Source: a virus (taxonomy: Duplodnaviria; Caudoviricetes). Taken from it: a DNA stretch of 64,000 bases. The stretch lies in the IMG/VR virus record IMGVR_UViG_3300031141_000005, positions 1,965 through 65,964 of that record; one strand, written 5' to 3'. The position numbers and the translations under genes were made by a program. Positions 29,001 through 59,867 of the stretch are shown here, in pieces (position 1 is the stretch's first letter; each line of letters opens with the position of its first letter). The notes beneath the pieces are model-generated. The model made no database searches, had not been told where the DNA came from, and saw only the letters and a program-made list of their open reading frames with translations.

Positions 29001-32000
29001 ACGAAAAAACATCTAATGGCGCTGGAGTTTTAAGCATCAATGAATTGATTGGTGTTGATAGTTCTTCAGGTCATGAGGAAGCTTCTTTCTCTTTAGCTAA
29101 GTTAGTTTACGCTGCTCTTCACGGAGCTAAAGGTCTTAACGCTCACGAGCAAACTCACGAAAACGTTAATTCATTTTCTACTAGCTCTCAAATGGAAAAC
29201 GATACTACTCTTGTTTTTGATGAGCAATTTAGAGAGTTAGGTATGTTGTCTGTAGTTTCTAAACTATCTGACCAACATTCAGAAAACTCTAGAGATGATG
29301 TTAAGTACTTAGCTATATACGGAAACGGTATAGACATGACTCAAGGTCTTAGAGTTACATTAAGTAAAGACGCTTACCTTAACGAGAAGCTTCCTTCTGG
29401 AGTTTCTATAGATTCTTTTGATGATGAAGGTAGAGCTAAATGGGATGAGAAGTACTCTAACTACTTAAGGTCTTTGGATATAGTCAACGAGAAGTTGGAT
29501 CACTTAAATGAAGCTAACATAGAAGACCACGACTACACAATGAACAGGTCTGCTTCTGATAAGAGGTTTGATTACGTATCTAATTTATTCGCCAACATAC
29601 AGAATGAATTATCTTATGAGACTGTAGGATTAACTAAAGAACACTTAGATGAGTTAGCTACCACTCCACTTAGACGATATGTAGAATACAACTATGGATT
29701 ACATATATCTAATAAGCAAATCAAGGATTGGGAGTTAGATCAAGGTAAGAGTTTCGTAGAAGAGATTACAATTAAAGGATTAAATAAAGATATATCTACA
29801 TTGGATTTATGGATGTCTCCAGGGGATTACGGTAAGAACAAACCAACCATGGCTTACATTAATAAAGAAATGAAGATGGAGCATATGGACTTCACTAGAA
29901 ACCTTCACCTTGTAACTAAGGAAATGAATAAGAGGTTAGATGCTTTATATAAAAGTAAAGCTACTGAGACTGGTTTCTTAGGAACTAAAGCTGGTCGTAT
30001 ATTTAATCAGTATTTCGCAGTAGGTAATAGAAAGGTGTCTGAGATACTATACGAAAACCTATTCGTAAGCGAGCACGCAACAAGAAGAAAGGTAGATACG
30101 AAAACGAACAAAGTTACTTATACAGATGCTAGTTCATTACGACTTAATCCTTTATTCTTTAAGAGCGCTAGCATCGTAGGAGATCAAAGTGTTATAGATT
30201 CAGATTCTCAAGCGTTTAAAGACTTATCCGTAGCAGAACAAGAGTACTTAAAGATGTACGTTAAGTACACTTCATTCTATAGAAACTTAATACACGCTAA
30301 GGGATTACTTAAAGGTGGCTCTGATAGAGGTACTAGTTATATTCCAGCATCTACTTCATCTAAGTTTGAAACGATGAGTAGAAGAGGTTTATTTGGATTG
30401 TACTACCAAATGCACAGAGGAGACGAAACTCTTTATGATGTAGTAATTGAGGCTGTAAATCCTTTAACTGGAGACCTTGAGAAGTTAGATTACTTTAGTT
30501 GGAAAGCTTTATATATGCACTCTCCTGAAGATGCTTTATTTACTACAGACTCAGACAACTTAAGAGTTGACTTAGGTCACGGTAATACATTGTCTGGAGC
30601 TCAAAGAATTAAAGCGTTCAGAGATATTACAGCTAAGGCTAAGAAGTTAATGACTAAAGGTAAGGATGATGGTGGTAACACTGTTAGTATATCTTCTCCT
30701 ATTAATGATGTTCTAGGTAATGAGGAATTTGTAAACAGATTTACATCTCACAGATCATCAAAGGCTGGGTACTTAGCGACTCACAACCTTCACCAGTCAC
30801 TTAGGTCTTACATACAAACGTTCATGTTCCAACATGGTAACGCTTACTTAGATGTTAAAGCGAATAAAATTAAGAAGCTTTCTTGGAATATAGATGATAA
30901 TAAAGATGAGTTTGGTGTTGAGTCTATGACTCTTCAGGACGCTACTAAAAACAAGTTTATATTTAAAGGATTTGATAGTAAGAACCTTATGGTTGATGCT
31001 GCTATGTCTCAACTTAGGTTGAGTGGTAGCGAGAATGCTTTAAAGTATATGGACAAAGTTGTTAAGGGTGGTTTAATTAATAAGCAGAGAGGTTTGTCTT
31101 TTAGTGAGTCAAAGAACGAAGCTAGTATAATTAAGTTCTTTACTAACTGGACTATGTATATAGCTTTAGGTTTCAACTTCCCAGCAGCTGTTGGTAACGT
31201 CTTGATAGGTAAGTACAATACTTACAGAGCTCAAGGTGGTGCTGGAGTTATTACTGGAGAGAAAAGATACTTAGGTATAGGTTCTAACGGTATGTTCGAC
31301 AAGAGCATTATGAAGAAATCTAGATTGATGATTGAAGAATTTGGTATCTTAACTTACCGAGCTGAAGAGATTGCTGAAGGTACTAGTGGTTCTGCCATTG
31401 ATGCTTTAATTTTCTCTCCTATGGTACTTGCAGAGAACTGGATTCAACAAGCAGCATTCTTAGGCTCTTTAACTCAAGAGCAGTGGGATAGCTATGAGGT
31501 TCACGAAGGTGAGCTTATGTTTAAGGGAGACATCAAGAAAGAAGATGGTACTCTTAAATATCCTGACGCAAAGAGAGAGTCTCAGCTTTCTAAGATTGAA
31601 ATAGCAAAACTAGAGAGAGATGTAATCAACCTTCAAGGTAGAGGTTACTCAGAGACTGATCAGAGATTCATTCAGATATATGCTCTTAGTAATTCATTCA
31701 TGCAATTCAAGAGGTGGTTCCCTACGTTCTTAGCTGATAGATTTAAATCAGAACACATAGATGACTTAGGTACTATGAGAATAGGTTCAGTGAAAGCTGC
31801 TTCTGACTTTATTTCAGAGATGAGAGCTAATGATATTCCTGTAACGGAATGGAGAGAGCACCTTAAAGATAAGCCTAAACACCTTAAAGATGGTGTTAGT
31901 AGATTATGGAGAGGTACTAAAGGTATCGCTATGCTGTCTATGATTCTATTAGCTATCTCTCATAATAGAGACGATGATGCGCCAGAGGATGAGACTTTAA

Positions 32001-32272
32001 AATTAATGGAGAAACTACTTGGTGATATGCTATTAGTCTTTAACGTTCCTAAGCTTACTTACATGGCTAACATACCAGCCTTAAGTACTGCAGATAACTT
32101 AGCTAAGACAGTGTATCATCTTATCGCTCAAACTGAGTACAAACGTAAAAGTAAGTACGGAGATAAGGGAGATAAGAGATTTGTTTCTAACTTCGCTCAA
32201 CTACTACCTTCTTCATCTAGATTCGTTCTAGAGGAGAATGGTAAGAAGAGTAAGAAAAGATCTATACGATAA
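20084..32272 (+). CDS. Giant virion-packaged RNA polymerase polyprotein (double-psi beta-barrel type) with zincin-like HExxH motif and PSBD-like domain
   Basis: 4062 aa. Catalytic GADLDGD (DLDGD at 27341-27355) preceded by an R-I-P motif; FHENFH (HExxH at 22970-22984). Synteny matches crAss-like vRNAP genes. Confidence 0.85.
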   Translation: MSNGLGNGVNAPGEDIENYDSSLDSSASQPDIQSNLEVPQQRSSFSLANINQQQAPMEQMDAWGGAVDLAEQQQNLPDIPEVGTPGIDYDMGHVETIGRSVMAGFGDMFNSMGDMVDFLSFTPSSIVSKHVLGIDTNKPISDAFHNFGDYLDSYGDTVPGLKDMSEITWDDMSDPKFWETGVARMLPFALSLMIPSTLAAKGAQAAMGSMNFLKSSAAIAKGASSVGIRLSQAAATGLIKKGIATIAAGSTANMLEGAALAGGAMNQAIEEGVDPRLAHAVGRRVFVDNLASMGADIVQYGLFTGQAKIGSAIMKTVPGAAKTAGLKAMKAAGIGPVVKQAFKAIGMGAANGITDGVVEQFQEVYQDWSVNKNIAEAKGEDFPTYMEFFMADEQRPTRIMSFATSLLMSGGSNFMQTATENKRKQNTTNQENADVHDLIGVFSDKVDQERTYKVNKKVFKGLDKNGVAITEDEVIEISGEDMQNEIQDSAARKLAMQAVTNGQKDLVMEALAMELEDGNITQDRYDSYVSTIAEVESQMSKYPDGSFNRMEKANLVTAVWAKTSVDRSLKIGEDAKNAEIEKINLNNILSEENKKSQIDALNESYNEGAKSKQAAADIMKDTVNSIYEFSKKRVAAEKFNKTDRPKLNKLAEKVNNNEELTKEENEYVASNKDFSGHIKKESSRLRRSEANSKAPKGFAYSETLEDGTLIYEEAVAKGEPGKVFKFKADKTTEIINNDLGDALNNIDKDIKDGDVVGDAVGDKADTKDSNDKDTDKVDDKDKVDGDANDKADDKVDDKDPTPDKPKVNATPRAAEVAEEEGVDLSKVVGTGTGGKIRVGDVRAYKLKNPNGQSKLFMRLDSAKVMAGLARDAAKRIAGDTASDLFDIATKYLNNRELRRSHTLDSNSHMVLSDYYRRKVVDGVVSMGFMPEIFTAAGVRAAGMASGLGIFLNTELYNEEAVFHENFHIFRMLYGHRPEVMEMMKNIIDQPIYEEIKLKYSNLLLVQSSGDALNLTLALKHASRLNKGVITNIRDFVAKNGGSMESEQTMKDFLAYAMEQVEAIGYKALESKDQTGIQDEALTHLAGKYGALNPDLFFSDKKKADTHKETFGKWLGFIKENSTIEESEALFEEATEGLYKKTNDFSFFEKFSKVKEIIENNQADYSGLSKNSPSQSKYMTAERKAINDSIRVSLDSKLNVAYEMAVAFHDEILGEAKKSSEDLGTKELIKAVKERRIFQDQTQEAFISFARAVLSEIAKDPAHGKNSEKYDKTFKILNANKHGIMNTIKTMFLSGLNVQEQKALKGEESAASEDVESEDGAFAAVIDGGSLRLSSKFGGIIKNFLTSGRAVNGELGATKNNVLKQIIMDINSVSNPEEMQALVEARIGLLKGNPDSLTFNEAIAAEFYTYLDETQDIVPGESIKSAYHELSGFKIDKPFVFVVGGSKDLLSNTDRNYQKRALDFIKFDKTDLIGITGGKPLSLSAIRAQVAKKIHVLKRFENADVSQFSVVDAFNKRIEFSAALYGLMSKENVTKSDVAAFIKRHILPEGTGVDVSLNEIEALMIFDEVSGQSLSIGAYFSQERISEMFYDSLSLRTSRNKDNKVEFGYEAAQDIIIGEVINPMKKITGDLDKSVVRELIKRWKASHDSTESVRGSISVYKTSHENKGSIIEGVAGSMDNMQGVNDIFKAVVTSYIVSSQQNPAGQVRMPEGDQVSVLVKKSALDYNVESLEKLKKDDLPRFKKLYGTNRYALKMAEGNWKLNYNILAGFDGENSIDSKNMTGTQVMYSDLRMILSALETGSDSYKQNIGDHSDKTRRYYADVDALGASISFNEFLGKTDHNDVTVESLEEYVKDYAPGLYKELEAIKSKQVAEMKSLINKHNDGVDNFDLHLVMSPSVIKSLRDSGKDIKTTDNEGAVEEGEGELDLAGDEVLKGSFSVESMMEGAERTHEKLGSNMADVVVAGLNYAVNKYYLQDLTGVVSQDASFTMKNKRATLLIAPQVSAFPEHRMDVIMFNDVKLLTLDGLSTIKTIDGTVVEVTADLLDSASYVTQDMADEITNAYGNTVDVTGSFKFVGAGQNTDNAAISSSFGSERSKFYFKGHTVVLDESSIGTPLEGVYKALLARERLFKSKGIKAKVIAYADSGVKKGHIKGINSKSLAEWDAMKDDDVAINEFQDSWSYDLKKDTYGYDGKYFGVQNELDKNATSATVAKQAVSATNIFADHENTELAAMSQDFLSLYAQALDQQYQEGSGGKTIEESGLESASSGSTFPTMTRAMNELATSLPFVTDSLSKTATAKVKKDAHRLRTTGSLSLQISDALYGYEFDGDNVIETDKSLKPIRIENGKVLPAEVAISSHMASMLGVTEKELEGGKEVFFFATRIPASSVGSTILLKVARISPTQGNTIAINAKMSAIMGADLDGDMLHLNAWTKKPKAGSVDAIKNKMLDKLKQMHEHPEVFKTLIKELEFKTVTKATNLALYGNEKGSTAVYNDFNVFDTAEMYEQTKGNAPMIGLIASTSNQFNYLAQGSPSVNYGGLPLVLVKGREEKSERYDRLDSKLSEDGGGTYYAYANYLNLILDDGKYGNRAKFGFNKGSGASFGLMIKMGIHPKDIALLMTKGKLGELLSMDKLQDYAREQLGVEKSLAGHIKTNFLSKGIDIEAIIKGDLESAIALAVVLKSISNDMYSLGSYVGLDSNLPESLVEVKERIRAGKKALANQPEIAQNAFTNNPLILSKVKFLSDYAVKLASEDVTISNGYSDTVGEYMLPVDENDFDSVQFTDAAKLLKALNLSRVAAEMPISIRDMLFESAVSGVSKTANNVESKNFLSILNKLDNQDSYSGVTQLIANYIKNNEDFDNNLFIQHLSMRNSTRFFTGGTDIIQDSSVVEFGMDREMLFELQEVEQIEALGKDFEKLPSWLKDWFIANDFIVSGWGSNEKQSLLPYMDSASISKVNGYFKSAFSNGKDFIEQTNEKTSNGAGVLSINELIGVDSSSGHEEASFSLAKLVYAALHGAKGLNAHEQTHENVNSFSTSSQMENDTTLVFDEQFRELGMLSVVSKLSDQHSENSRDDVKYLAIYGNGIDMTQGLRVTLSKDAYLNEKLPSGVSIDSFDDEGRAKWDEKYSNYLRSLDIVNEKLDHLNEANIEDHDYTMNRSASDKRFDYVSNLFANIQNELSYETVGLTKEHLDELATTPLRRYVEYNYGLHISNKQIKDWELDQGKSFVEEITIKGLNKDISTLDLWMSPGDYGKNKPTMAYINKEMKMEHMDFTRNLHLVTKEMNKRLDALYKSKATETGFLGTKAGRIFNQYFAVGNRKVSEILYENLFVSEHATRRKVDTKTNKVTYTDASSLRLNPLFFKSASIVGDQSVIDSDSQAFKDLSVAEQEYLKMYVKYTSFYRNLIHAKGLLKGGSDRGTSYIPASTSSKFETMSRRGLFGLYYQMHRGDETLYDVVIEAVNPLTGDLEKLDYFSWKALYMHSPEDALFTTDSDNLRVDLGHGNTLSGAQRIKAFRDITAKAKKLMTKGKDDGGNTVSISSPINDVLGNEEFVNRFTSHRSSKAGYLATHNLHQSLRSYIQTFMFQHGNAYLDVKANKIKKLSWNIDDNKDEFGVESMTLQDATKNKFIFKGFDSKNLMVDAAMSQLRLSGSENALKYMDKVVKGGLINKQRGLSFSESKNEASIIKFFTNWTMYIALGFNFPAAVGNVLIGKYNTYRAQGGAGVITGEKRYLGIGSNGMFDKSIMKKSRLMIEEFGILTYRAEEIAEGTSGSAIDALIFSPMVLAENWIQQAAFLGSLTQEQWDSYEVHEGELMFKGDIKKEDGTLKYPDAKRESQLSKIEIAKLERDVINLQGRGYSETDQRFIQIYALSNSFMQFKRWFPTFLADRFKSEHIDDLGTMRIGSVKAASDFISEMRANDIPVTEWREHLKDKPKHLKDGVSRLWRGTKGIAMLSMILLAISHNRDDDAPEDETLKLMEKLLGDMLLVFNVPKLTYMANIPALSTADNLAKTVYHLIAQTEYKRKSKYGDKGDKRFVSNFAQLLPSSSRFVLEENGKKSKKRSIR
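22330..22500 (+). repeat. Low-complexity Asp/Lys linker (DK-x-D repeats) within vRNAP
   Basis: DKDIKDGDVVGDAVGDKADTKDSNDKDTDKVDDKDKVDGDANDKADDKVDDKD. Confidence 0.8.
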
Positions 32273-47915: not shown

Positions 47916-48057
47916 AATTTTCATCTAATCGTTCTATCCTTCTTTTCAGAACCCTATCACTTAATTTTATTTTAAGTTTAGTTTTTATAAACCGTTGTAG
48001 GGCTTTCAAGTCTCTAGACCTGTACTTTAGTAGTAGTTGTTTTAAAGCGTCTTTCAT
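47914..48057 (-). CDS. Small basic hypothetical protein (47 aa)
   Basis: Hand-translated MKDALKQLLLKYRSRDLKALQRFIKTKLKIKLSDRVLKRRIERLDEN. Confidence 0.55.
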   Translation of the reverse strand: MKDALKQLLLKYRSRDLKALQRFIKTKLKIKLSDRVLKRRIERLDEN

Positions 48058-48058
48058 T

Positions 48059-48331
48059 TTAAAATCTATCGTTAGTTAATCCTAATTTAATTAGCTCTGT
48101 AACTTTCGTTATAACTATCTTACTTCCTAATGTACCTGAATGGCTTGTTCCTAACCTACCCATAAGGTATTGATTGTACCTTGGATCGTTAAGTAACTCT
48201 ATCGTGTTTCCTATACAGACTTCTTCGCTATGAGATTTCTGTGTCTTATTGTTTAAGACAACCTCCTTAGCTGCTCTCCTGTATTTCTGGTATGTATAGT
48301 CAACACGACAAAGGTACATATTCATTTTCAC
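48059..48331 (-). CDS. Hypothetical protein
   Basis: ORF in operon context. Confidence 0.6.
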   Translation of the reverse strand: MKMNMYLCRVDYTYQKYRRAAKEVVLNNKTQKSHSEEVCIGNTIELLNDPRYNQYLMGRLGTSHSGTLGSKIVITKVTELIKLGLTNDRF

Positions 48332-48855
48332 CTAACTATATTTGCTATTGAGCGTTTCAGCTTGGTGATGTTTCCTTTTAGTTGCATAATCTCTAACTGC
48401 TGTAACCTTAGAGCGTTATCATATAGAGACTTACTTTCCATACCTCTCTTCTGAGCTTCAAACAATTCTATATTGTTTAGTATAACCCTAAAGGCATTAT
48501 CAACCTTAGTCTCTGTTGCCCCGCTCTGGTTGTAGCATTCAAACATCTTACCTCTAAGGCTATAGATAGGTGGTACTACCTTCCTGTCTACAGCTTCCTT
48601 CAGGTCTTTCACATACGGGTCGTACTCTGAATCAGAGCTAACCTTATTGATGGAATGTAATACTGTAGCGTGATCTTTCTTTATAGCTATACCTATATCA
48701 GCTAAGCTGAGTCTTGTATGCTTTCTTAAGCAATAAGCTACCAGTTGTCTGGCAAACATAGGCTGTCTACGTCTAGTCTTAGACATAATCTCTTCCTTAC
48801 TGAGGCTTGTTAATTTCATTACAATACCAAAAGCTTCTTCTATTTCTTCGTTCAT
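48328..48855 (-). CDS. DnaA C-terminal (domain IV-like) HTH protein
   Basis: SK.RR....ARQ...Y..R.HT.LSL..IG....KDHATVLHSI.K. Confidence 0.85.
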   Translation of the reverse strand: MNEEIEEAFGIVMKLTSLSKEEIMSKTRRRQPMFARQLVAYCLRKHTRLSLADIGIAIKKDHATVLHSINKVSSDSEYDPYVKDLKEAVDRKVVPPIYSLRGKMFECYNQSGATETKVDNAFRVILNNIELFEAQKRGMESKSLYDNALRLQQLEIMQLKGNITKLKRSIANIVR

Positions 48856-48857
48856 CT

Positions 48858-49079
48858 TTATACTTCTAAGAAGATAGAGTTAGCGAACTCTTTATCGAGC
48901 TCTCCAATCTTCCCCTTGATTACTTTTTCCTTTTCCTTTGCTTCTAGTCTTTCAGCCTTTGTGCTGTCCGTTCCTAGATTAGATTGTACTACTGAGTTGT
49001 CGTGTAGTAGTACATCAATTTGCTTCCGTATCAGTTTGTTCGTGTTGTATCGGAATTCTCCGTGCGTTTTCTTTGCCAT
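48858..49079 (-). CDS. Hypothetical protein
   Basis: ORF overlapping the end of the GGCT gene. Confidence 0.6.
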   Translation of the reverse strand: MAKKTHGEFRYNTNKLIRKQIDVLLHDNSVVQSNLGTDSTKAERLEAKEKEKVIKGKIGELDKEFANSIFLEV

Positions 49080-49446
49080 AATCTCCTTCTTGATTGATTA
49101 GTGTACCCATTGAGCGTTCATTAAAATATAACCAGCAATCGAAATCTATCCCATCCTCTGTGTTAATCTTAACCATCTTCCTTTCGTACCATGTAGGGTG
49201 ACTCTCTAACATATCTAACATATCCATAGACTCTTGAGACACTAGGTATATCTCACCTTTTATCTTAGAGTATGGTATATTACTAGATACATACGGTATC
49301 CCTGACTCTGTCATTAAATACTCTTCATCGGTCTCACCCTTAGATATGAATACATCATCTTCTAGTAAGGCGTGATTATGAAACCCATATTTCAGGGTTC
49401 CATAAACAAATACCAACTTATCTTGAATTTCTAAATCGTTGCCCAT
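49015..49446 (-). CDS. Gamma-glutamylcyclotransferase-like (AIG2/GGCT) protein
   Basis: VFVYGTLK.G..NH, I.GE.Y.V and LD.LE..P.WY.R motifs. Confidence 0.9.
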   Translation of the reverse strand: MGNDLEIQDKLVFVYGTLKYGFHNHALLEDDVFISKGETDEEYLMTESGIPYVSSNIPYSKIKGEIYLVSQESMDMLDMLESHPTWYERKMVKINTEDGIDFDCWLYFNERSMGTLINQEGDYGKENARRIPIQHEQTDTEAN

Positions 49447-50231
49447 TATACTTCTAGTGCTTCGTTATTGTTATAGAATGTACATACCTCATCGTTGATG
49501 TATGTCTTGTAATCGTATAGTTGTCTTCTGTATGCTGACCTACCGCTATCTATGGAACTCCTACTCAACCTGTATACACCTACATTATGAGGAGCTTTAA
49601 GCTCTACCATAATAAAGTAGAAGTCTTTCTTCTGAGTACCATCTAAGTAGAATGCTCCCTGCTGGTTAGTATTCCAGGACTGTCGGAACTCTTCAAACTT
49701 CCATGGACTAGCACCCTGTCTCTCTGACGTAGTCTTTAAGTCTGCAAGCATGTCATCTTTTTCTATATCAACCTTACCTTTACATAAGACTCCAGTCTCT
49801 TCATCTTTCCAGAAGTGTATGGTCTCCGTCTTAGCCCCGTCCATAATGCTACGCACTACTGGATGGTTCATTAGGTTCTCTGCCATTATCTCGAACTTAA
49901 TCTTATAGGTCTCGCATACAGGTTCTAATCCTTCAGCGTTAGCTACAAACTCTTTGTATATAGCTTGACCTATCTTAGTCCTCTTGTCTACTTTTGGCAT
50001 CCATATGTACCTCTTAGAGAACTCATCTGGCTCCAAGAAATAGCAATGAAACGCAGAACCAAGGACTAAGGCAAGAGAGGAAGGGAAGATACTATTGATA
50101 TAGTGCTCTAAATTATGTGCTGACCCTCCTTTAATATTCTTAAGCATACTATTAGTTACGTACTTATAGTCTGCGAAATACGATTCATCATCGTATATGT
50201 ACTCATCGTTGAGTTTCTCTACCTTAATCAT
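49446..50231 (-). CDS. PD-(D/E)XK exonuclease, ExoVIII/RecE-like (DUF3799)
   Basis: S.LK, GSAFH..FLEP..F, CKGKVD, DLKTT and Q.AFY motifs. Confidence 0.85.
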   Translation of the reverse strand: MIKVEKLNDEYIYDDESYFADYKYVTNSMLKNIKGGSAHNLEHYINSIFPSSLALVLGSAFHCYFLEPDEFSKRYIWMPKVDKRTKIGQAIYKEFVANAEGLEPVCETYKIKFEIMAENLMNHPVVRSIMDGAKTETIHFWKDEETGVLCKGKVDIEKDDMLADLKTTSERQGASPWKFEEFRQSWNTNQQGAFYLDGTQKKDFYFIMVELKAPHNVGVYRLSRSSIDSGRSAYRRQLYDYKTYINDEVCTFYNNNEALEV

Positions 50232-50433
50232 CTGTGTTTTCTTTTTCTAGTTTAGCTTCTTCCCTCTTTTCTTCCTGGGCTTTCTTCATCTTAGTTAGCT
50301 TCTTTAAGCTAATAGTTATATTAAACTTCTTTCTAAGCTCACGTCTAACCTTCTTGAGGTCTATGTCGTTTACAGAGAACATATCTATAAGCATGTTTAT
50401 TAAGTTTGCTTGTTCTTTCTCTTCTTGTTTCAT
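50224..50433 (-). CDS. Hypothetical protein
   Basis: Small basic ORF resembling 47914-48057. Confidence 0.55.
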   Translation of the reverse strand: MKQEEKEQANLINMLIDMFSVNDIDLKKVRRELRKKFNITISLKKLTKMKKAQEEKREEAKLEKENTDD

Positions 50434-50522
50434 TTCCCTTTCGTTTTGTTTACTGACTTGTCGTATAGTATAAATACAACAACGAATACAGCTACTGCTG
50501 TTACAAATAATGCTTGTGTCAT
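50430..50522 (-). CDS. 30-aa single-TM micro-protein
   Basis: MTQALFVTAVAVFVVVFILYDKSVNKTKGK; starts at the repeat's ATG and has ATGA coupling downstream. Confidence 0.55.
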   Translation of the reverse strand: MTQALFVTAVAVFVVVFILYDKSVNKTKGK

Positions 50523-50523
50523 C

Positions 50524-50709
50524 TTAGTTTCTTTTTAGTTTATCTTGCTCCCAGTAGTATTCACACTCTGAGTTTCCGTCTTCGTCTACACCCTTGAATG
50601 GTGGGTTACCGAAGTACGACTGCATATATTCACTAGGTTCAACCTTAAACCTATGGCATGTTTCTTTTATAGTGCACATACCTCCTTCGCACATTGATAT
50701 ATCTGGCAT
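50524..50709 (-). CDS. Small Cys-rich protein (MPDISMC...C..C.R...C..YW)
   Basis: Four Cys residues; its stop codon lies within the degenerate repeat copy. Confidence 0.65.
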   Translation of the reverse strand: MPDISMCEGGMCTIKETCHRFKVEPSEYMQSYFGNPPFKGVDEDGNSECEYYWEQDKLKRN

Positions 50710-50710
50710 A

Positions 50711-50911
50711 TTATTTAGCTCTCGTTAATATATTGACGGGTTCTTTGCCTCGCCCTATTAGCAACTTATCTACTGCGATAGCTGCCTCTCTCTCTGTATC
50801 GAACTTAGTCCTACTAACTCCTCTCATGTTTACGAACCAACGCTGATCATTGCTTGTTTTAATGCTAGCAACATGTTTGTATTCGCTAGGAGCGTAATTC
50901 ATTTTGTTCAT
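50711..50911 (-). CDS. AP2-like DNA-binding micro-protein
   Basis: S.YK.V.....RW.......F.TEREAA.A.D.....G....N pattern. Confidence 0.6.
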   Translation of the reverse strand: MNKMNYAPSEYKHVASIKTSNDQRWFVNMRGVSRTKFDTEREAAIAVDKLLIGRGKEPVNILTRAK

Positions 50912-50912
50912 C

Positions 50913-51077
50913 TTAGTCTTGTTTTAGTTCGTTAGGGATTTCCATCCATCTAATTATTTCTCCTTTTAATGTAGTTTCCCACATATCTAACCATTCTGTA
51001 CTTGTGTAATAGCACAACTTGATGTAGCCGTTACTCATTCTACACACATAACTTCCTTCTTTTTTTGGTTGTTCCAT
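50913..51077 (-). CDS. 54-aa DUF551-like protein
   Basis: MEQPKKEGSYVC...YY...W...IIRWMEIPNELKQD (hand-translated). Confidence 0.65.
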   Translation of the reverse strand: MEQPKKEGSYVCRMSNGYIKLCYYTSTEWLDMWETTLKGEIIRWMEIPNELKQD

Positions 51078-51089
51078 CTTAGTCTTGTT

Positions 51090-51182
51090 TTAGTTGTTTA
51101 AAAATAGTATCGCCAAATAAAACACCCAAGTTGCCAATATTGAAGCTACGCACCATTCAAACAAGTTATTTTTCTTCTTCAT
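51090..51182 (-). CDS. 30-aa single-TM micro-protein
   Basis: MKKKNNLFEWCVASILATWVFYLAILFLNN (hand-translated). Confidence 0.55.
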   Translation of the reverse strand: MKKKNNLFEWCVASILATWVFYLAILFLNN

Positions 51183-51183
51183 C

Positions 51184-51303
51184 TTAGTCTTGTTTTAGTT
51201 GTTTAGCTTTTAGTTTAGCTAGCTTAGAATAGTAGTTAAACTTCTTTTTATCTTTTTGTTTGTAGAATTTCTTCTTACCAATCAATTCCTTAATGTCTGG
51301 CAT
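51184..51303 (-). CDS. 39-aa Lys-rich micro-protein
   Basis: MPDIKELIGKKKFYKQKDKKKFNYYSKLAKLKAKQLKQD (hand-translated). Confidence 0.55.
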   Translation of the reverse strand: MPDIKELIGKKKFYKQKDKKKFNYYSKLAKLKAKQLKQD

Positions 51304-51421
51304 ATTAGTCTTGTTTTAGTTAGTCCATAGTTGGGAAGGAATCCCGCCCTCCCCAACGCTGACTTTCAAATCCATTTCAAGATTTCTTTAGTAACACTCA
51401 CGCAGTCACCTCTCGTAATAG

Positions 51422-51564
51422 TCAAGGATGATGGAATCGAACCACCTTACTACTAACTGCATCTATGTATAGCCTTGTTCAGAACTTCGTGGGCATCAAT
51501 AGCAGAGCCTTTTATGTAGTACCTCCTCGATAGAGGCTCACAGCTCCAACTGTGACAATCCTTG
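51422..51564 (-). ncRNA. tRNA-like structured RNA with expanded central domain
   Basis: 7-bp acceptor stem CAAGGAT/ATCCTTG-A, T-arm GGTGG-TTCGATT-CCATC and internal hairpins; about 143 nt, no canonical anticodon arm. Confidence 0.55.
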
Positions 51565-51644
51565 GGGTTGCCTAGCTCCGTTCACTCAAGCAGTTTAGTA
51601 GCTAGGACTTTAGTTTGCAGCGTTCAAGTGGCTTGCTCTCTTTA

Positions 51645-51821
51645 CTATTGTCCGTACTGTCTACCATTTAAGGTAGCACCTTGTTGACGGAAGTTTCTGG
51701 GGGATACTTTTCTTGGGTGATATGTCACACCTCGATGTTCGACGCCCATTATTAATTGATATGCATTCCTTGTTACAGCCTTACCTGTAGTGTCTTTAGT
51801 AATTGGTTTAATCCTTGCCAT
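51645..51821 (-). CDS. 58-aa basic hypothetical protein
   Basis: MARIKPITKDTTGKAVTRNAYQLIMG...; TAATG-coupled to the RusA-like gene. Confidence 0.55.
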   Translation of the reverse strand: MARIKPITKDTTGKAVTRNAYQLIMGVEHRGVTYHPRKVSPRNFRQQGATLNGRQYGQ

Positions 51822-52219
51822 TATATGTGCTTTCCTTTAATCTTTTGGTTATCAGGTACGATGTCTATCACCACGCCTGCAGTTTCTTTGTCTACTTCGT
51901 AGCCTGTGAAGTATGGAACGATGTTAGTTATATCATCATCTTCTATCCAGAAATTCTTAACCATAAGGTCTTGAACAGTTTGAGCTGGGTTTATGTAGTC
52001 AAACTTTCTTCTTGTGCTTCTTATAAAATAGAACGATACATGGTATGGTGGCGATAGGTCCTTAGTTAATTCCTTGAACTTAGCCTTACCTTCTCTGTAT
52101 TCTGTTCTTGTATTCTTTATGTACTCTCTTGTTGTCTTACCGTTAATCAGATACTTGCCTGTCCATTGCTTGCTGTTCTTGCTAGACGAAACATTACCGT
52201 GTATATATATTCCTTTCAT
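51821..52219 (-). CDS. RusA-like Holliday junction resolvase
   Basis: GNV.SSKNS, RRKFDYIN....QDLM....IEDDD. Confidence 0.7.
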   Translation of the reverse strand: MKGIYIHGNVSSSKNSKQWTGKYLINGKTTREYIKNTRTEYREGKAKFKELTKDLSPPYHVSFYFIRSTRRKFDYINPAQTVQDLMVKNFWIEDDDITNIVPYFTGYEVDKETAGVVIDIVPDNQKIKGKHI

Positions 52220-52292
52220 ATTTGTGTGTTAAATATTCATTAACAGCAAGCCTCATCAAGAGACCTGCCGTTAAGAATACTATAGTTAGATA

Positions 52293-52844
52293 CTAAAATG
52301 GAGACCCAGTTGTCTGAGCTTCCCCTCCACTCAAGGCTGTAACATGTGCTTCATGCGCTGCTCTATATGCTGCTTGATCAGCTGGAGTTAAAGCTTTATT
52401 ATAGCTATCCTTCCATGTTATAGTGCGATCCATAGTTCCTGAGAACTTATAGTCTACTGAGGTACGAACGGTTGGTTCACCCGTATCCTTGTCGTTAGTC
52501 CAGTACTCTCTAGAGGCTAGACATACATTAACTTTATTACCTAAAGTTTCTTTACACGCTGTAGGGAATACATCAAAGTTCTTAGCCCCTGCGTTCTGTA
52601 AGAATCCCTTGAAGATTTCTGTACGTACTCTTGCGGCAGCTTCTGACGTTGACTCATCGATACCTTGGAATCTTAACTGTTGAATTCCTTTCTCATTGGA
52701 AACCTTAAACTCCACGTAAGGCTTACCTGTATATCCATCAATGGAATTTGAACTCTTCACCTCGTCCACTGTTACTGTGTGAACACCTGCTTGTAGGTAG
52801 TTGGTGGTTTCTTTTACTTCTGCTTTCTTTAAATCTGGAAACAT
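52293..52844 (-). CDS. Putative single-stranded DNA-binding protein (DUF669-like OB fold)
   Basis: YL.AG.H.V.V..V pattern and C-terminal ...SPF tail; directly downstream of the Sak4-like ATPase. Confidence 0.55.
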   Translation of the reverse strand: MFPDLKKAEVKETTNYLQAGVHTVTVDEVKSSNSIDGYTGKPYVEFKVSNEKGIQQLRFQGIDESTSEAAARVRTEIFKGFLQNAGAKNFDVFPTACKETLGNKVNVCLASREYWTNDKDTGEPTVRTSVDYKFSGTMDRTITWKDSYNKALTPADQAAYRAAHEAHVTALSGGEAQTTGSPF

Positions 52845-52866
52845 AATCGTTTTCTTTTAGTGTTAA

Positions 52867-53502
52867 TTAATTGTAATACTCTTCGCATTTCTCAATGACA
52901 TACTGTAGGTCATTATCTATATGTAGCTCATCGAACATCTCCATTGGGCTCTTTGCAGAGTCCTTACCTAGAGACTGTGTTCTAAATCTGTGCTTCATTC
53001 CGTCTTCGGCTAGATGATTGTCAGTGAATAGACATAGAACGAATTCCTTCTCTACTCTCTTCTTCCATCTGTTACCATCGACAGCAACATAACGCTCTTC
53101 TACACCCTCTCCGCTGTCGTATGCAGCGTCTATAGCTATATATACAACGTACTTGTCAGTGTTCTTGCTTATGTTTAATATCCTATCGATTTCCTTGTTG
53201 TAGAATGACCACACATCAAATCCTTTGAATCTTATATCAGCCTCTCTGTATATCATTTCGATAAGAGATGTGAATGATTCAATAACGATAACATCAATCT
53301 TGTCTGAGGCTAATGCTTGCGTTAAGGTCTTGTTGAATGTAGCCAGATCGGCAACAGGTACATTCTGGAAAGCCTTAGCTCCCTTGAATGGTAGTTGTTT
53401 TCTCTCTGTGTTTATGACCGCCGTTCTTGTGGGGTCAAGGTTCCGTAGTGATGTGCTCTTTCCTGAGCCACTCTTCCCTACGACAATGATGTTTGGTTTC
53501 AT
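52867..53502 (-). CDS. AAA_24/Sak4-like ATPase (ssDNA annealing)
   Basis: GKSGSGKSTS Walker A, K.LPFK and AKSP..MF...I.NDL; probable start at ATG 53502. Confidence 0.8.
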   Translation of the reverse strand: MKPNIIVVGKSGSGKSTSLRNLDPTRTAVINTERKQLPFKGAKAFQNVPVADLATFNKTLTQALASDKIDVIVIESFTSLIEMIYREADIRFKGFDVWSFYNKEIDRILNISKNTDKYVVYIAIDAAYDSGEGVEERYVAVDGNRWKKRVEKEFVLCLFTDNHLAEDGMKHRFRTQSLGKDSAKSPMEMFDELHIDNDLQYVIEKCEEYYN

Positions 53503-53735
53503 TTGTCTTTGGTTTTTAACTTTAAATAATCTTCCATGTTTAGCTTGTCGTCTTTCCTCCAAGTCTCTCTCGATGAACAAACAAACTTCATAAAGCCTCT
53601 AAGCATAACCTTCTCGTCCTTAGCGAATCTCTCCTCTAAGCTCTCGAAGGTTTTACTTATAGCTAGCTTGATTGTTTTCTTTGAATAAGGTAGCTGTTCT
53701 GCTATCCTATTTACTATGTCGTCTGTAGTTTTCAT
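53499..53735 (-). CDS. HU/IHF-like DNA-binding protein
   Basis: IV.RIAE...SK.......F..L......EKV.LRGF.KF. Confidence 0.75.
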   Translation of the reverse strand: MKTTDDIVNRIAEQLPYSKKTIKLAISKTFESLEERFAKDEKVMLRGFMKFVCSSRETWRKDDKLNMEDYLKLKTKDK

Positions 53736-53740
53736 TACCA

Positions 53741-53772
53741 CAAATATAGTGAATTAACCTGAATTGTGCAAA
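53741..53772 (-). promoter_or_regulatory. Full Bacteroidota sigma70-type promoter TTTG-N20-TATATTTG
   Basis: Minus strand TTTG cacaattcaggttaattcac TATATTTG, 5 nt before the HU ATG. Confidence 0.7.
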
Positions 53773-53783
53773 GTTTTCAACAG

Positions 53784-55085
53784 CTAAAACTTCTCTTCTA
53801 TCTCTACGAACTTGGTTAAGTAACCAATAAACTTCAGCCATTTGCTACCTATACCTATGTTCCTTCCCTTTGCGAATATAATCTCTGCCAGTCCTTCGGT
53901 GTTGTTACCGTTCTGGTCTTCAGTAAATCCGTAATACTCTGGTCTATAGACTAGTATAACTGCGTCTGCAGCTTGCTCTATCTCTCCTGACTCTCTAAGA
54001 TTAGAGAGCATAGGTCTAGAAGCTTCATTGCGTTCCACTCCCCTAGATAGTTGCGACAGGGCTAGTATAGTAATATCCAATTCCTTGGCTATGTTCTTCA
54101 AACCCCTAGCTATTTTAGCTATCTCTTGCTCTCTAGATGTTCCCTTAGCAGGACTAGAAACCAACTGTAGATAGTCTACCATAACCAGCTTAACTTTCTT
54201 AGTTACTACATACTGACGAATACGATTCAGTAAATACCTCAACGAAGTATTAGCACATTCATCTATATACAAATCAGTACGCTCAATAACACCCGTAGAG
54301 GTATGTATCTTAGCCCATTCGTCAGCAGTTAACGTACCCTTTAAGATGTACTTGTTATCAACCTCGGACTCAGCGCTCACAAGCCTAGCCATAAGCTGAT
54401 TGACAGACATCTCATAAGAGAATATAACTGTAGGATAATTCATAGCAGATGCGTTATACGCCAATGATAGTGAAAACGATGTCTTACCCATAGATGATGC
54501 ACCACCAATAATAATTAAATCTTGTGGTTGCCACCCACCTGTAAACTTATCTATGTTAGCGAACCCACTAGGGATTCCTGATAAGCCTTCGGTTGCGGCA
54601 TTCTTTTCAATCATCTTGATTACATCTCGTAATCTATCTGTCATCTCTACTATGCCTTCCTTAGACTCCGAGGTTATAGCGGTCATGCTAGTCTCTATCT
54701 TAGATACTGTAGAGTCAATCTCCTTACTATCTATATTCATCAAGACTTCTTCACATAATACTTTTATGTTCTTCTTCTTGTATAGGTTTGTAAGGTATTC
54801 GATGAGAGTCTCTATGTTTTGTGTGTATGCATCACCGTGTGATATACATAGACCTAGTTCATAGTCTAGTCCTTTCATTTTAAGGACACCTAACTCGGTC
54901 ATACACTTAAGCATGTCGAACTTATCACCCTTCTGATACTTGTCGTCTATCCACCCGAATATAGCTATCCTGTGCACTGACGAGAACAACTCCTTCTTTA
55001 GTAGTTGGTGTTGGTCGTAGTATGAGTTTGGTTTGTTCATTAGCCACCATAGTAGCGCTCTCTCTATGTCTTCATTATCGCTCAT
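53784..55085 (-). CDS. dnaB: Replicative DNA helicase
   Basis: G.PSGF..ID, GASSMGKT, FSYEMS, VDYLQL, LSQLSR and LRESGEIEQAAD motifs. Confidence 0.95.
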   Translation of the reverse strand: MSDNEDIERALLWWLMNKPNSYYDQHQLLKKELFSSVHRIAIFGWIDDKYQKGDKFDMLKCMTELGVLKMKGLDYELGLCISHGDAYTQNIETLIEYLTNLYKKKNIKVLCEEVLMNIDSKEIDSTVSKIETSMTAITSESKEGIVEMTDRLRDVIKMIEKNAATEGLSGIPSGFANIDKFTGGWQPQDLIIIGGASSMGKTSFSLSLAYNASAMNYPTVIFSYEMSVNQLMARLVSAESEVDNKYILKGTLTADEWAKIHTSTGVIERTDLYIDECANTSLRYLLNRIRQYVVTKKVKLVMVDYLQLVSSPAKGTSREQEIAKIARGLKNIAKELDITILALSQLSRGVERNEASRPMLSNLRESGEIEQAADAVILVYRPEYYGFTEDQNGNNTEGLAEIIFAKGRNIGIGSKWLKFIGYLTKFVEIEEKF

Positions 55086-57332: not shown

Positions 57333-58733
57333 CTAAATCGCCCCGTTAAATTTATCCTTCCTACTATTAACATACCTAGATACTTGACCTCCCAGATTAT
57401 CTCCGAGAGCTGAATGTAATACCTCGTCTAAGGTTATACCTCCAGGTAAGTTTCTAGCTTCCCAAATTCTTCGCTGGTTATTCTCAACGAAGTTTACAAA
57501 TGCCATACATATCAACGTCCAATTACGGATCTTCTCATAGTTCATGGACGCTCCATGATTTCTGAACTCAATAGTGTTATGACCATTAGCTTGGCTATAC
57601 CCAACCATATTTAACCATGTATACCTCTTTGAAGGATACCTACCTAATCTGGTTTTCTTGTTGTTATCCGCATCCAATGTGCATGAAGAATAAATCAAGT
57701 CTGCTAAATGTTCTTTGTAATTCTTGAAAGTCATCTCCTTATGTTTAGTAGGGATAGGCTTACAATACGTACTACGCTTTCTAGATGGTGGCATCATTTC
57801 AAAGACCTCATCTTGAAGCATTAAGCCTAAGTGAGTAGCCATGATAGTGAACCTTCTATTAAATGTAGCTCCACCTATGTGTACATGTATACCACATTGA
57901 GAATCAATCTCGCAGTTTTCTTGTACGGTATCACAAACTTTCTTGAGCATGCTTAACCCTGAATCTCCTACAAGAACTCCAGTTACATATTCCTTACCGC
58001 TTATACTACCATCATTTACTGCAGATACATTTAAATCATTACCTTCACTAGTCGGTACATAACCTCCTGATGTCTCTACTTCAACACCGAATGTATATCT
58101 CATACCGTTAGTGTTGGTGAATGTCGTAGACATTGTACCACGATCCCTAGCATACTTAGACATCTTTTGGCCTTCGCTAGCTACAGACGAGTTATCGAAC
58201 GTACTTCCTCCATTACCTTCATCCCCTCCGTTCTCGCAGTTGTCAAAGTTGTGGTTGTTTGAATGTCTATACTCTTCACATCCATCGCAATAGTATACAT
58301 CATTGTTGTCTGCTGCGCAGCTATCTATATACGTTTCGTCGTCGTCTGAACAGAATATAAGGTCATCAGAGTCTTCATGTACTTGAATCATATCTCCGCT
58401 ACCGTCTATAACGCTTCTAGAGACTTCTTCAGAATATCTATCTTCATTAAGAATACACCAAAAGGTGTCGTCATAATTCATAAGCTCTCCGTCGTATATA
58501 CGTACTACGTCGTATTCCTCTTGAAGTAATTCAAAAGCGTCATCACGCTTAGGGCTGTTGTGTAACTCTTCCGATGAGCGTATGTCATAAACACTTAGGT
58601 CTACGACAACAGGACTGCTCATGCAAGGTTCGTATAACTCGAACTCGTCGCTTATCTCCTCCTCCTCTTCTATGAGTAATACGTCAACGCTTTCCTCTTC
58701 CTCTAATATTGAGTCGATTGTTTCTCTTGGCAT
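57333..58733 (-). CDS. Amidoligase (COOH-NH2 ligase, amidoligase_2 family) with acidic Cys-containing N-terminal region
   Basis: FGVEVE, DGSI, E.VT, CGIHVH, RY..LN and TIEFR motifs. Confidence 0.85.
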   Translation of the reverse strand: MPRETIDSILEEEESVDVLLIEEEEEISDEFELYEPCMSSPVVVDLSVYDIRSSEELHNSPKRDDAFELLQEEYDVVRIYDGELMNYDDTFWCILNEDRYSEEVSRSVIDGSGDMIQVHEDSDDLIFCSDDDETYIDSCAADNNDVYYCDGCEEYRHSNNHNFDNCENGGDEGNGGSTFDNSSVASEGQKMSKYARDRGTMSTTFTNTNGMRYTFGVEVETSGGYVPTSEGNDLNVSAVNDGSISGKEYVTGVLVGDSGLSMLKKVCDTVQENCEIDSQCGIHVHIGGATFNRRFTIMATHLGLMLQDEVFEMMPPSRKRSTYCKPIPTKHKEMTFKNYKEHLADLIYSSCTLDADNNKKTRLGRYPSKRYTWLNMVGYSQANGHNTIEFRNHGASMNYEKIRNWTLICMAFVNFVENNQRRIWEARNLPGGITLDEVLHSALGDNLGGQVSRYVNSRKDKFNGAI

Positions 58734-58888
58734 AATTTCTTAATGTTTTTAAGCTTACGCTTCACAGACGCTATATCAGCGTTGTTGTTATTATTAGAAC
58801 GAAGAGATAAGCCCTCTAAAGAGCTTATAACTTCATTCGTAAACTGTTCGTCTGATATGAATATCAGTAATTTCTCTAGATTATTCAT
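58703..58888 (-). CDS. Hypothetical protein
   Basis: Short ORF between the GATase and amidoligase genes. Confidence 0.45.
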   Translation of the reverse strand: MNNLEKLLIFISDEQFTNEVISSLEGLSLRSNNNNNADIASVKRKLKNIKKLCQEKQSTQY

Positions 58889-59867
58889 AGATTTTTTCCT
58901 CTACATTGTTAACACCATAAGACTTATCATATAGCTCATCAAGCAACTTCTCTAAAGCAGTCTCTTGTGTCTCGTCTATGATTCCGTTGTACATTAAATC
59001 TTGCAGTGCTTGACACTGAATCTCTTCTGTGCTCTGTCCTATGTAGTACTCTTCCTTCTCTGTTTTAGAGACATACGATGCATTGTATTTAGCGGTTGCA
59101 TAAGGGTCTTCGTTCTCATTAACGTCCCACTTATTCCATATCTCCTGCTGTTCCTTAGTCACTGTATATTCGTTAGTCTTGTAGTCTGTCCAGTTCTTAA
59201 CCTTAGTACCAACCTCTTGAACATACGTGGTAGGAATATCCTTAGTGTACTCAAGCTTACCATCGTTATAGATGAATAGCTTTTCCTTTTCCACTTCCTC
59301 AATCTTACCACCATCAGGACATATATCTTGCAACCCTTCCTTCAATGAAGAGAAATAGATACCACCCTCAACCTCAAGCATATACAACGGATTGTTACGT
59401 CTGTATATATATAGCTTGTTGTCTGACTCAGTCCATACAGCGTTGATAGTACCACCATGCTCACCTAATGTTAAGTGATCATTGGTGGCTACCATCGCTT
59501 CGTAAATAGCTTTACTATCTACGTCGGGGGAATCGAAACTATACTTCTTAGCAGTGTCTTTGTAATTGGATAACACACCATTATGACACCCAATGTAGGA
59601 GCCTATAATATAAGGGTGTGTGTTCTCAGCAGTCTTTGTACCGTGAGTTGCATACCGTGTATGCCCAATCGCTAGATTTACCTCGCTTACATCAATGAAT
59701 CTATTTAAAAATCCTGATGTTTCTAATGTCTTATATAATCTAGAACCTTCAGGTCCTTCTGTATATAATCCAGTTGAATGTCCACCTCTACTATCGTTAT
59801 CGTTTAGTAGGTGCATTATCTTTGCAATGTTTACACTCTTGCCAGAGTATGCAGTTATACCACACAT
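58881..59867 (-). CDS. Class II (Ntn) glutamine amidotransferase
   Basis: MCGI, SRGGHSTG, GHTRYAT.G, N.HP, HNG and VDS motifs. Confidence 0.92.
   Translation of the reverse strand: MCGITAYSGKSVNIAKIMHLLNDNDSRGGHSTGLYTEGPEGSRLYKTLETSGFLNRFIDVSEVNLAIGHTRYATHGTKTAENTHPYIIGSYIGCHNGVLSNYKDTAKKYSFDSPDVDSKAIYEAMVATNDHLTLGEHGGTINAVWTESDNKLYIYRRNNPLYMLEVEGGIYFSSLKEGLQDICPDGGKIEEVEKEKLFIYNDGKLEYTKDIPTTYVQEVGTKVKNWTDYKTNEYTVTKEQQEIWNKWDVNENEDPYATAKYNASYVSKTEKEEYYIGQSTEEIQCQALQDLMYNGIIDETQETALEKLLDELYDKSYGVNNVEEKIYE

Follow-up and report, generated by a model that had tools for sequence, protein, structure and literature searches.

Among relatives of a phage array of very small genes, recent exchange of neighboring genes is concentrated at exact copies of a 21-nt repeat, here termed R, that supplies the start codon of each following gene and often also the stop codon of the preceding one. 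The array lies on the minus strand of a 64,000-nt stretch of DNA (the window) from an uncultured marine virus of the Caudoviricetes, which covers positions 1,965 to 65,964 of the IMG/VR virus record IMGVR_UViG_3300031141_000005 (65,964 bp, 97% complete); all coordinates below are those of the window unless another locus is named. R is defined as the minus-strand repeat AACTAAAACAAGACTAA(G/T)ATG. It probably functions as a translational linker that doubles as a short homology for integrase-free exchange of gene cassettes, the recombination part of this reading being drawn from comparative data.

The exact 21-mer AACTAAAACAAGACTAAKATG was found with 0 mismatches at positions 51321-51301 (R1, with T at -2), 51200-51180 (R2), 51095-51075 (R3), and 50929-50909 (R4) of the minus strand, and a fifth, degenerate copy with 3 mismatches at 50540-50520 (R5) of the same strand. 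The four near-perfect copies and one degenerate copy described in an earlier note, which was made from the sequence alone, are therefore borne out: shuffled sequences gave a mean of 0.01 matches, and five or more matches were reached in 0 of 100 shuffles. Across the whole 65,964-bp record, 4 copies were detected at up to 2 mismatches, all on one strand, and a reversed-pattern control gave 0 matches.

The ATG of every R copy opens an open reading frame (ORF), of 39, 30, 54, 66, and 30 aa in order, and four of the five copies also carry the stop of the preceding ORF. R1 follows a noncoding leader, without an upstream ORF, and starts the 39-aa Lys-rich ORF (51184..51303; this and all other array genes are on the minus strand). 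R2 combines the stop of this ORF (C-terminus ..KQLKQD*) with the start of a 30-aa hydrophobic, transmembrane (TM)-like peptide (51090..51182), which in turn ends ..LFLNN* at the first TAA of R3. The 54-aa ORF started by R3 (50913..51077; ..NELKQD*) stops in R4, and both this ORF and the 39-aa ORF end at the TAA three bases before the next ATG. R4 starts the 66-aa ORF (50711..50911), and R5 holds the stop of the 61-aa Cys-rich ORF (50524..50709; ..KLKRN*) together with the start of a second 30-aa TM-like peptide (50430..50522). The distribution of stops that the earlier note had reported (two LKQD*, one LKRN*, and one at the first TAA) was reproduced in full. The two TAA stops of R, at -4 and -15, are in different frames. 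One internal junction, TAA-T-ATG at 50709 (50702..50713, minus strand), has no R; direct reading of the sequence confirmed that it has TAATATGCCAGA (50713-50702) in common with the R1 junction at 51303. In total, seven small genes (39, 30, 54, 66, 61, 30, and 69 aa) with spacings of 1 to 12 nt, or overlapping, are located between the noncoding leader and an ExoVIII-like exonuclease gene. The last of them, a 69-aa ORF (50224..50433), overlaps the stop of the second TM-like peptide with its start (ATGA) and overlaps the start of the exonuclease gene by 8 nt. The six array ORFs fell into six separate blastp clusters and are thus unrelated to each other, as had been proposed.

The exact 20-mer of R was identified in 54 IMG/VR loci; a locus holds at most six copies, all on the same strand. 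A search of 185,579 prokaryote genomes (596 Gb) yielded one match, in Patiriisocius marinus, flanked by a 198-aa gene with the C-terminus PQLKQD* and by a gene for a 629-aa membrane protein; this is about the chance rate for a 20-mer in 596 Gb, and the match was not used as evidence on the host. No match was obtained by blastn of the locus against GenBank phages. Loci were also fetched by a cassette protein, independently of R. Among 17 informative homologues of the 54-aa gene obtained in this way, exact R was located 5' of the gene in 10 and 3' in 7 (in six more with one mismatch). No R-like junction is present in L119, one of the two most distant homologues; in the other, L118, a 27-nt junction repeat of its own occurs three times, and a private variant is shared by L115. 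The ELKQD tail is missing from both of the most distant homologues of the 54-aa protein, which, together with the repeat private to L118, indicates that the junction is homogenized within lineages and that the protein tail is a by-product. R also starts large genes in relatives, including those for a 534-aa chaperonin-60 homologue (L031:402-2003) and a 284-aa SPL-type radical-SAM protein (L016:974-1825), and precedes a gene adjoining a large terminase. A member of the same family as the 61-aa gene follows an exact R in L034, unlike the R-less 50709 junction of the window.

Cassette order was compared by chaining ATG ORFs of at least 25 aa on the strand of the repeat into gene strings and clustering them by blastp. 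Across the 54 loci, R joins different cassettes in different orders. The 30-aa TM cassette, present in 12 loci, has four different left neighbors and four different right neighbors, the latter being the 54-aa gene, a 146-aa gene, a 119-aa gene adjoining a large terminase, and the 66-aa gene, whereas the 54-aa cassette has six different right neighbors in 15 occurrences. The closest relatives of the window, L025 and L064, lack precisely the R1-to-R2 unit of 121 bp with the 39-aa ORF; in L025, the leader is 99% identical to that of the window, and the sequence from R2 onward 91%. Homology breaks were surveyed by all-against-all blastn, in which high-scoring segment pairs shorter than 60 nt or below 80% identity were dropped, together with ends lying within 20 nt of where a locus ends. 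One or more breaks were found at 65 of 88 junctions with exact R, at 31 of 52 with a degenerate copy, and at 88 of 348 others, and the ends of homology blocks pile up at the edges of R (43 ends at -18 on the left and 39 ends at +2 on the right). The alignment of the locus across related contigs that the earlier note had proposed therefore revealed presence or absence of cassettes with breakpoints at the repeat, in support of its view of the repeat as a recombination joint. A 62-aa fusion ORF was also observed in L116 (contig of L033; 1441-1629), consisting of the TM cassette in an alternative frame and the middle of the 54-aa gene, with one deletion endpoint inside the repeat.

Recent events were separated from old ones by stratifying the comparison by the identity of the shared gene, with shared genes above 200 aa and incomplete ORFs excluded. 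When the shared gene was at least 97% identical at the nucleotide level, its neighbor differed in 61 of 122 pairs across exact R, compared to 4 of 229 across non-R junctions; at 90-97% identity, the neighbor differed in 30 of 32 (R-R) and 28 of 62 (non-R) pairs. Since pairs are not independent, distinct events were counted, giving 14 switches/30 kept at R versus 2/100 at non-R junctions (Fisher p 7e-7). The excess was also seen when the genes on both sides were at most 100 aa (23/68 at R versus 3/98 at non-R; as distinct events, 9/24 versus 1/51, p 7e-4). Such a concentration of recent exchange at exact copies is a prediction of homology-dependent recombination and not of purely functional constraint.

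Evidence from reads was obtained from Logan contigs of three marine metagenome runs. In these runs, cassette segments within 50905-51240 had depths of about 300-2270, compared to 4-60 for the downstream flank. The contigs stop at the edges of R, and other sequence continues from the loose ends at 50909-50911, 51197-51200, and 51301, indicating that several neighbors coexist in one sample. Joints between R copies in these contigs had sides of 19-23 letters, with ambiguous placement of the repeats, and were not taken as evidence of deletions.

R is shared by phages with dissimilar backbones. The closest complete relative, G001 (67.8 kb), matches the early region of the window at 64-87% in its backbone at the nucleotide level (TerL, 73% at the amino acid level), whereas its cassettes (91%) and leader (99%) lie above the backbone level. 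In G004 (147 kb, 86% complete), matches to the 20 kb of the window used for comparison were limited to the 54-aa cassette (96%), the TM cassette (98%), and the R copies, and no match to the TerL of the window was detected. Complete genomes of 57.5 kb (TerL 27% identical) and 36 kb, both with direct terminal repeats, also carry exact R. The ExoVIII-like gene, which is downstream of the array in the window (49446-50231), is upstream of the leader in G001 (C1:1772-2396), between a 58-aa gene and a RusA-like gene, and its protein is only about 51% identical.

The features of R on the side of the start codon correspond to those of translation initiation in Bacteroidota. Adenines occupy positions -3, -6, and -11 to -14 of R, no Shine-Dalgarno (SD) sequence is present, and 41-nt windows around the four exact copies folded with 0 to -1.1 kcal/mol, not better than shuffles. 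Initiation in Flavobacterium johnsoniae is raised by A-3, A-6, A-12, and A-13, and the A-run from -14 to -11 is also important (Baez et al., 2019, PMC6847099); all of these positive determinants are found in R. With matching A positions and low structure, R is a predicted initiation region and would represent a textbook SD-free one, joined to two stops in two frames. The 50 gene starts of the window also have no SD signal (a loose 4-mer at most, in 10 of 50), and A peaks at -13 to -11, -7/-6, and -3/-2 upstream of them; the upstream regions of other genes in the same phage are otherwise varied. The Bacteroidota SD-independent region is a loose preference (PMC6847099), whereas R is a fixed 21-mer, and the resemblance leaves its exact repetition unexplained.

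The contexts of R were surveyed over 75 exact copies with unique context, nine of them cut by a locus end and 68 with at least 100 nt upstream. All 66 complete ORFs downstream of exact R were at least 30 aa long (median 60). Upstream (n = 68), an ORF ended at TAA(-4) in 32 cases, at TAA(-15) in 8, and neither in 28. The TGA that overlaps the ATG was considered as a third stop, which would make R a three-frame stop, and was rejected: it is used at 0 of the 68 exact-copy contexts and at one degenerate junction only. The translation signal proposed in the earlier note therefore gains support for its start role, for which the fit to the Bacteroidota determinants and the 66 downstream ORFs speak at the level of sequence.

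Based on these results, the following course of events is proposed. As RNA, R would close the upstream frame at TAA(-4), or at the second TAA (-15) in another frame, and would then offer an unstructured, SD-free initiation region and the AUG of the next gene, so that any ORF placed between two copies should be terminated and its successor translated; an upstream ORF reading into R would gain the tail ..LKQD. As DNA, identical copies would provide 21-30 bp of perfect homology, within one genome and between phages carrying R, which are presumed to encounter each other in common hosts, probably Flavobacteriia. Single-strand annealing or general recombination of the phage would use this homology, crossovers at two R copies replacing a cassette and unequal crossovers deleting or duplicating cassettes, and the outcome would be an integrase-free pool of small-gene cassettes common to several phage types. 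We infer homologous recombination at R as the mechanism and regard four neighboring minus-strand genes as encoding its candidate executors: an ExoVIII-like PD-(D/E)XK exonuclease that abuts the array (49446..50231; phrog_412, E 2e-49; DUF3799, E 9e-21), a RusA-like resolvase (51821-52219; phrog_1682, E 3e-19), a weakly SSB-like protein (52293-52844; phrog_378, E 0.0012), and a Sak4-like annealing protein (52867-53580; phrog_2872, E 9e-37). All but the RusA-like gene had been pointed out previously. The array genes may be co-transcribed from the leader.

A broader form of this proposal is that R is a community-wide adaptor, by which unrelated phage types in the same marine Bacteroidota hosts draw on one micro-gene cassette pool through ordinary homologous recombination, with no need of an integrase, and that its exact sequence is kept by selection for exchangeability and not only for expression. 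We put this forward tentatively, as a possibility with slightly less than an even chance of being correct.

Several observations weigh against the linker and recombination proposal. As a homology for annealing recombinases, 21 nt falls in the lowest part of the known range. When all divergences are considered, pairs of distinct contexts sharing a gene differ as often at non-R junctions (83 of 104) as at R (80 of 102), so that shuffling does not depend on R. Many or most of the non-R junctions of the arrays follow a loose template, ACTAAA..A..TAAgATG, which fits a purely functional constraint as well. R is thus a general kind of junction in its perfect form rather than the sole site of exchange. 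Every relative is a contig from short-read metagenome data, and in 24 of the 54 loci an R copy lies less than 300 nt from the end, which fits heterogeneity at R and also warns that long-range order in such contigs is uncertain. No recombination product, such as a deletion or a circle, was seen directly. The evidence on expression consists of one RNA-library contig of 254 nt (depth 2.1), in which a variant form of the leader hairpin is joined to R, the TM cassette, a further R, and the beginning of the 54-aa gene; it gives a weak hint of co-transcription, as DNA carry-over in an RNA library is possible.

One alternative is that R is conserved for a role in RNA only, either as an optimal Bacteroidota initiation region with stop-start coupling or as the operator of a translational repressor or an endoribonuclease governing the early genes jointly; shuffling would then be illegitimate and followed by selection for intact boundaries, with R a passenger of the cassettes. 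The complete set of Flavobacterium initiation determinants, the absence of structure, and the genuine ORF after 66 of 66 copies all agree with it, as does the fact that most other array junctions are a loose version of the template and equally shuffled at deep divergence; lineage-specific variants of R could, moreover, reflect co-evolution with a factor. However, the requirement for initiation is loose, as the varied upstream regions of other genes in the same phage illustrate, and function alone does not explain letter-perfect identity across dissimilar phages, given that the exact 20-mer occurs once in the 185,579 prokaryote genomes. The approximately 20-fold enrichment of recent neighbor switches at exact copies is likewise unexplained, and no candidate regulator was identified. 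We thus consider a role in RNA alone unlikely.

A second alternative, in which R is the recognition site of a dedicated enzyme such as a site-specific recombinase or a homing-type nuclease that moves the cassettes, would explain the letter-perfect conservation and the lineage-specific variants. R, however, has neither an inverted-repeat core nor a hairpin, and no integrase, transposase, or HNH/GIY-YIG or other homing nuclease was found in the 72 clusters that adjoin R or degenerate junctions in relatives, most of which are unannotated, nor did the 18 + 38 window ORFs scanned give an integrase match. Nine of the 72 clusters had a Pfam match at E <= 0.001 (Terminase_3, SPL-type radical SAM, Cpn60, HTH_39, DUF7220, DUF5675, Amidoligase_2, and two sub-threshold matches). 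A dedicated enzyme is therefore very unlikely.

The observed combinations could also be an artifact of short-read assemblers, which join or break contigs at a repeat of co-occurring phages. The restriction of the loci to metagenome contigs, with the 24 ends close to R mentioned above, would be expected in this case, and cassettes of about 100-200 nt are near the read length, so that phasing a run of several cassettes is not always possible. On the other hand, the sequence shared at each adjacency amounts to only 21 nt, shorter than the usual assembly k-mers and the read length; arrangements recur across samples (L016/L026, L027/L063/L067, and L019/L041/L056/L068); many arrays are internal to long contigs; and independent Logan contigs of three runs give several alternative continuations at the same R edges. 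A pattern of neighbor switches that depends on identity is not expected from misassembly either, and we assign only a very small probability to this explanation.

The weakest alternative, that R is the conserved C-terminus plus spacer of one tandemly duplicated gene family, draws on the many cassettes of relatives with a QRVIEELE core and a ..RIKELKQD* end encoded by R, in which R may have originated, and has a negligible chance of being the full explanation, being contradicted by the six separate clusters with no window ORF in that family, the use of R in two frames and after a noncoding leader, its position before the chaperonin-60, SPL-type radical-SAM, and terminase-adjoining genes, and the ELKQD tail missing from distant 54-aa homologues. 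A CRISPR-like array was ruled out on reading the sequence: its 'spacers' would be ORFs that evolve under purifying selection, and the repeats lack both palindromic symmetry and structure.

Among known systems, R most resembles the promoter-early stem-loops (PeSLs) of T4-type phages, repeats between small ORFans of a hypervariable region at points of insertion, deletion, and replacement, which their authors likened to integrons and to Botstein's linkers and for which mini-circles provide experimental support (Arbiol et al., 2010, PMC2839356; Comeau et al., 2014, PMC4122927). Both systems have short repeats between variable small genes, breakpoints at the element, and a proposed role as homology for integrase-free recombination. 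A PeSL, however, is a sigma-70-like promoter and a GC stem-loop terminator followed by an SD sequence and a start, whereas R is a stop, an SD-free region, and a start; mini-circles of PeSLs were seen experimentally, whereas the exchange at R is deduced from sequence comparison. R also lies inside an apparent single polycistronic unit, overlapping the upstream coding sequence and its stop, and is common letter for letter to phages of very different genome size.

No sigma-70-like promoter was detected at R, with six promoter-like sites in 49400-52300 compared to 8.7 expected, in a scan that does not extend to Bacteroidota promoters. TTTG, which is part of the Bacteroidota promoter consensus, does not occur in the sense strand of R on direct reading. 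Folds and a terminator scan revealed no stem-loop or terminator-like site at the R copies. R would therefore apply a PeSL-like principle in a new form, one that, if it acts, would do so through translation within a single operon. A full-text search of the literature recovered PeSLs and no description of such a translational linker.

In the concept of Botstein and Campbell, as summarized in PMC2839356, conserved flanks let modules swap by homologous recombination while their placement and regulation are kept. This is a concept for lambdoid modules of at least one gene, whereas R is a concrete 21-nt linker of single genes with a putative translational role. The analogy with integrons drawn in the earlier note holds in part. 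The array has in common with integrons a leader and, behind it, small cassettes that lack promoters, are unrelated and individually exchangeable, and all point the same way. No other integron feature was observed: no IntI was found among the 18 + 38 window ORFs scanned or the 72 clusters of relatives, R contains no imperfect inverted repeat on direct reading and no attC-like fold, and its joint spans stop and start, whereas the integron joint is downstream of the ORF. The array is also not one of tandem paralogues, its units belonging to six different blastp clusters.

Outside the T4 PeSL case, the clean movement of single small phage genes is largely unexplained. R offers a concrete, searchable 21-nt sequence that is proposed to combine a stop, SD-free ribosome entry, a start, and a recombination joint, and that is common letter for letter to phages of 36, 58, 66, and about 150 kb. 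If it is indeed a community-wide adaptor, Botstein's 'linker' would be realized in translation instead of transcription. The proposed mechanism, if true, would provide a testable rule for the pooling of early 'ORFan' genes, likely host-takeover or counter-defense genes, among phages of one host group, explain why such regions break metagenome assemblies, and supply a natural design for putting expressed cassettes into Bacteroidota phages.

The array ORFs appear to be real genes, at least in part, as judged from the pooled ratio of nonsynonymous to synonymous polymorphism (pN/pS). This ratio was 0.16 for the 54-aa gene, 0.21 for the 66-aa gene, and 0.18 and 0.26 for two cassettes of relatives; higher values were obtained for the 61-aa Cys-rich gene (0.50), the second TM-like peptide (0.49), and the first TM-like peptide (0.72, resting on only 12 differences). 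The 61-aa protein matched phrog_20586 (E 2e-9). A Pfam search of the six micro-proteins up to E <= 10 gave only a sub-threshold NGP1NT match. The 54-aa protein was modeled as a four-strand beta protein (predicted local distance difference test score, pLDDT, 83) and had no Foldseek/PDB match at E <= 0.001; its 'DUF551-like' label in the earlier note is a weak lead only, with an Atlas score of 0.81 that is within the chance range.

The 'AP2-like' label of the 66-aa protein received modest support. Its model (pLDDT 79) has strands and one helix, with strand-strand-helix elements called, and the top three matches across VIA, in a search independent of Foldseek, were plant AP2/ERF domains at 21-28% identity, namely, 2gcc_A (Z 5.3, root-mean-square deviation 2.4, 52 residues aligned, 21% identity), 7et4_A (Z 5.1), and 7wq5_B (Z 5.0), where a Z under 8 can reflect a common arrangement. 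The Atlas score for AP2 was 0.92. No AP2 match was found in Pfam at E <= 10, and Foldseek gave no match at E <= 0.001.

The 39-aa ORF (51184-51303) starts with MPDI, like the unrelated 61-aa gene at 50709, whereas its 43-aa homologue in L044 (L044:2189-2317) has a different N-terminus, MKDLDKDI. The 39-aa gene of the window thus seems to have a chimeric 5' end, with the joint lying within the coding sequence.

Directly 5' of R1, the noncoding leader (51322..51425, minus strand) folds into three hairpins (-33.9 kcal/mol, z -3.0) and leaves R unpaired. Its consensus structure, from nine sequences, has 18 pairs, four of them with compensatory changes. The leader recurs before arrays in several contigs and, in addition to the 99% identity to L025 given above, is 92-95% identical in L064, L021, and L046. 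A reading of its hairpins as sites for an N4-like virion RNA polymerase was unsupported, the 4062-aa protein of this phage having no PHROG match; the corresponding plus-strand ORF (20084-32272) is located among structural genes, with no match at E <= 1e-5. Farther upstream, a tRNA-like cloverleaf was noted at 51424-51564 (minus strand), with a 7-bp acceptor-like stem, D-like and anticodon-like hairpins, an extra arm of roughly 72 nt, and a canonical-looking T arm at 51446-51430. Its fold was not better than shuffles (z -0.71), and nothing was found by ARAGORN in the window and 11 loci or by Rfam at E <= 1 in 48000-54000. In an abundant variant in the three metagenome runs, 51455-51537 is replaced by 32 other letters.

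The array is set in a replication and recombination module that also encodes a DnaB-like helicase, a GGACT-type enzyme, and a protein with a DnaA-C-like helix-turn-helix, and the plus-strand half of the window carries the terminase, portal, capsid, tail-fiber, and lysis genes. Amidoligase-, glutamine-amidotransferase-, and gamma-glutamyl-cyclotransferase-like genes are located on the minus strand at 57333-59867 and 49015-49446, and an amidoligase gene adjoins an R copy in L062.

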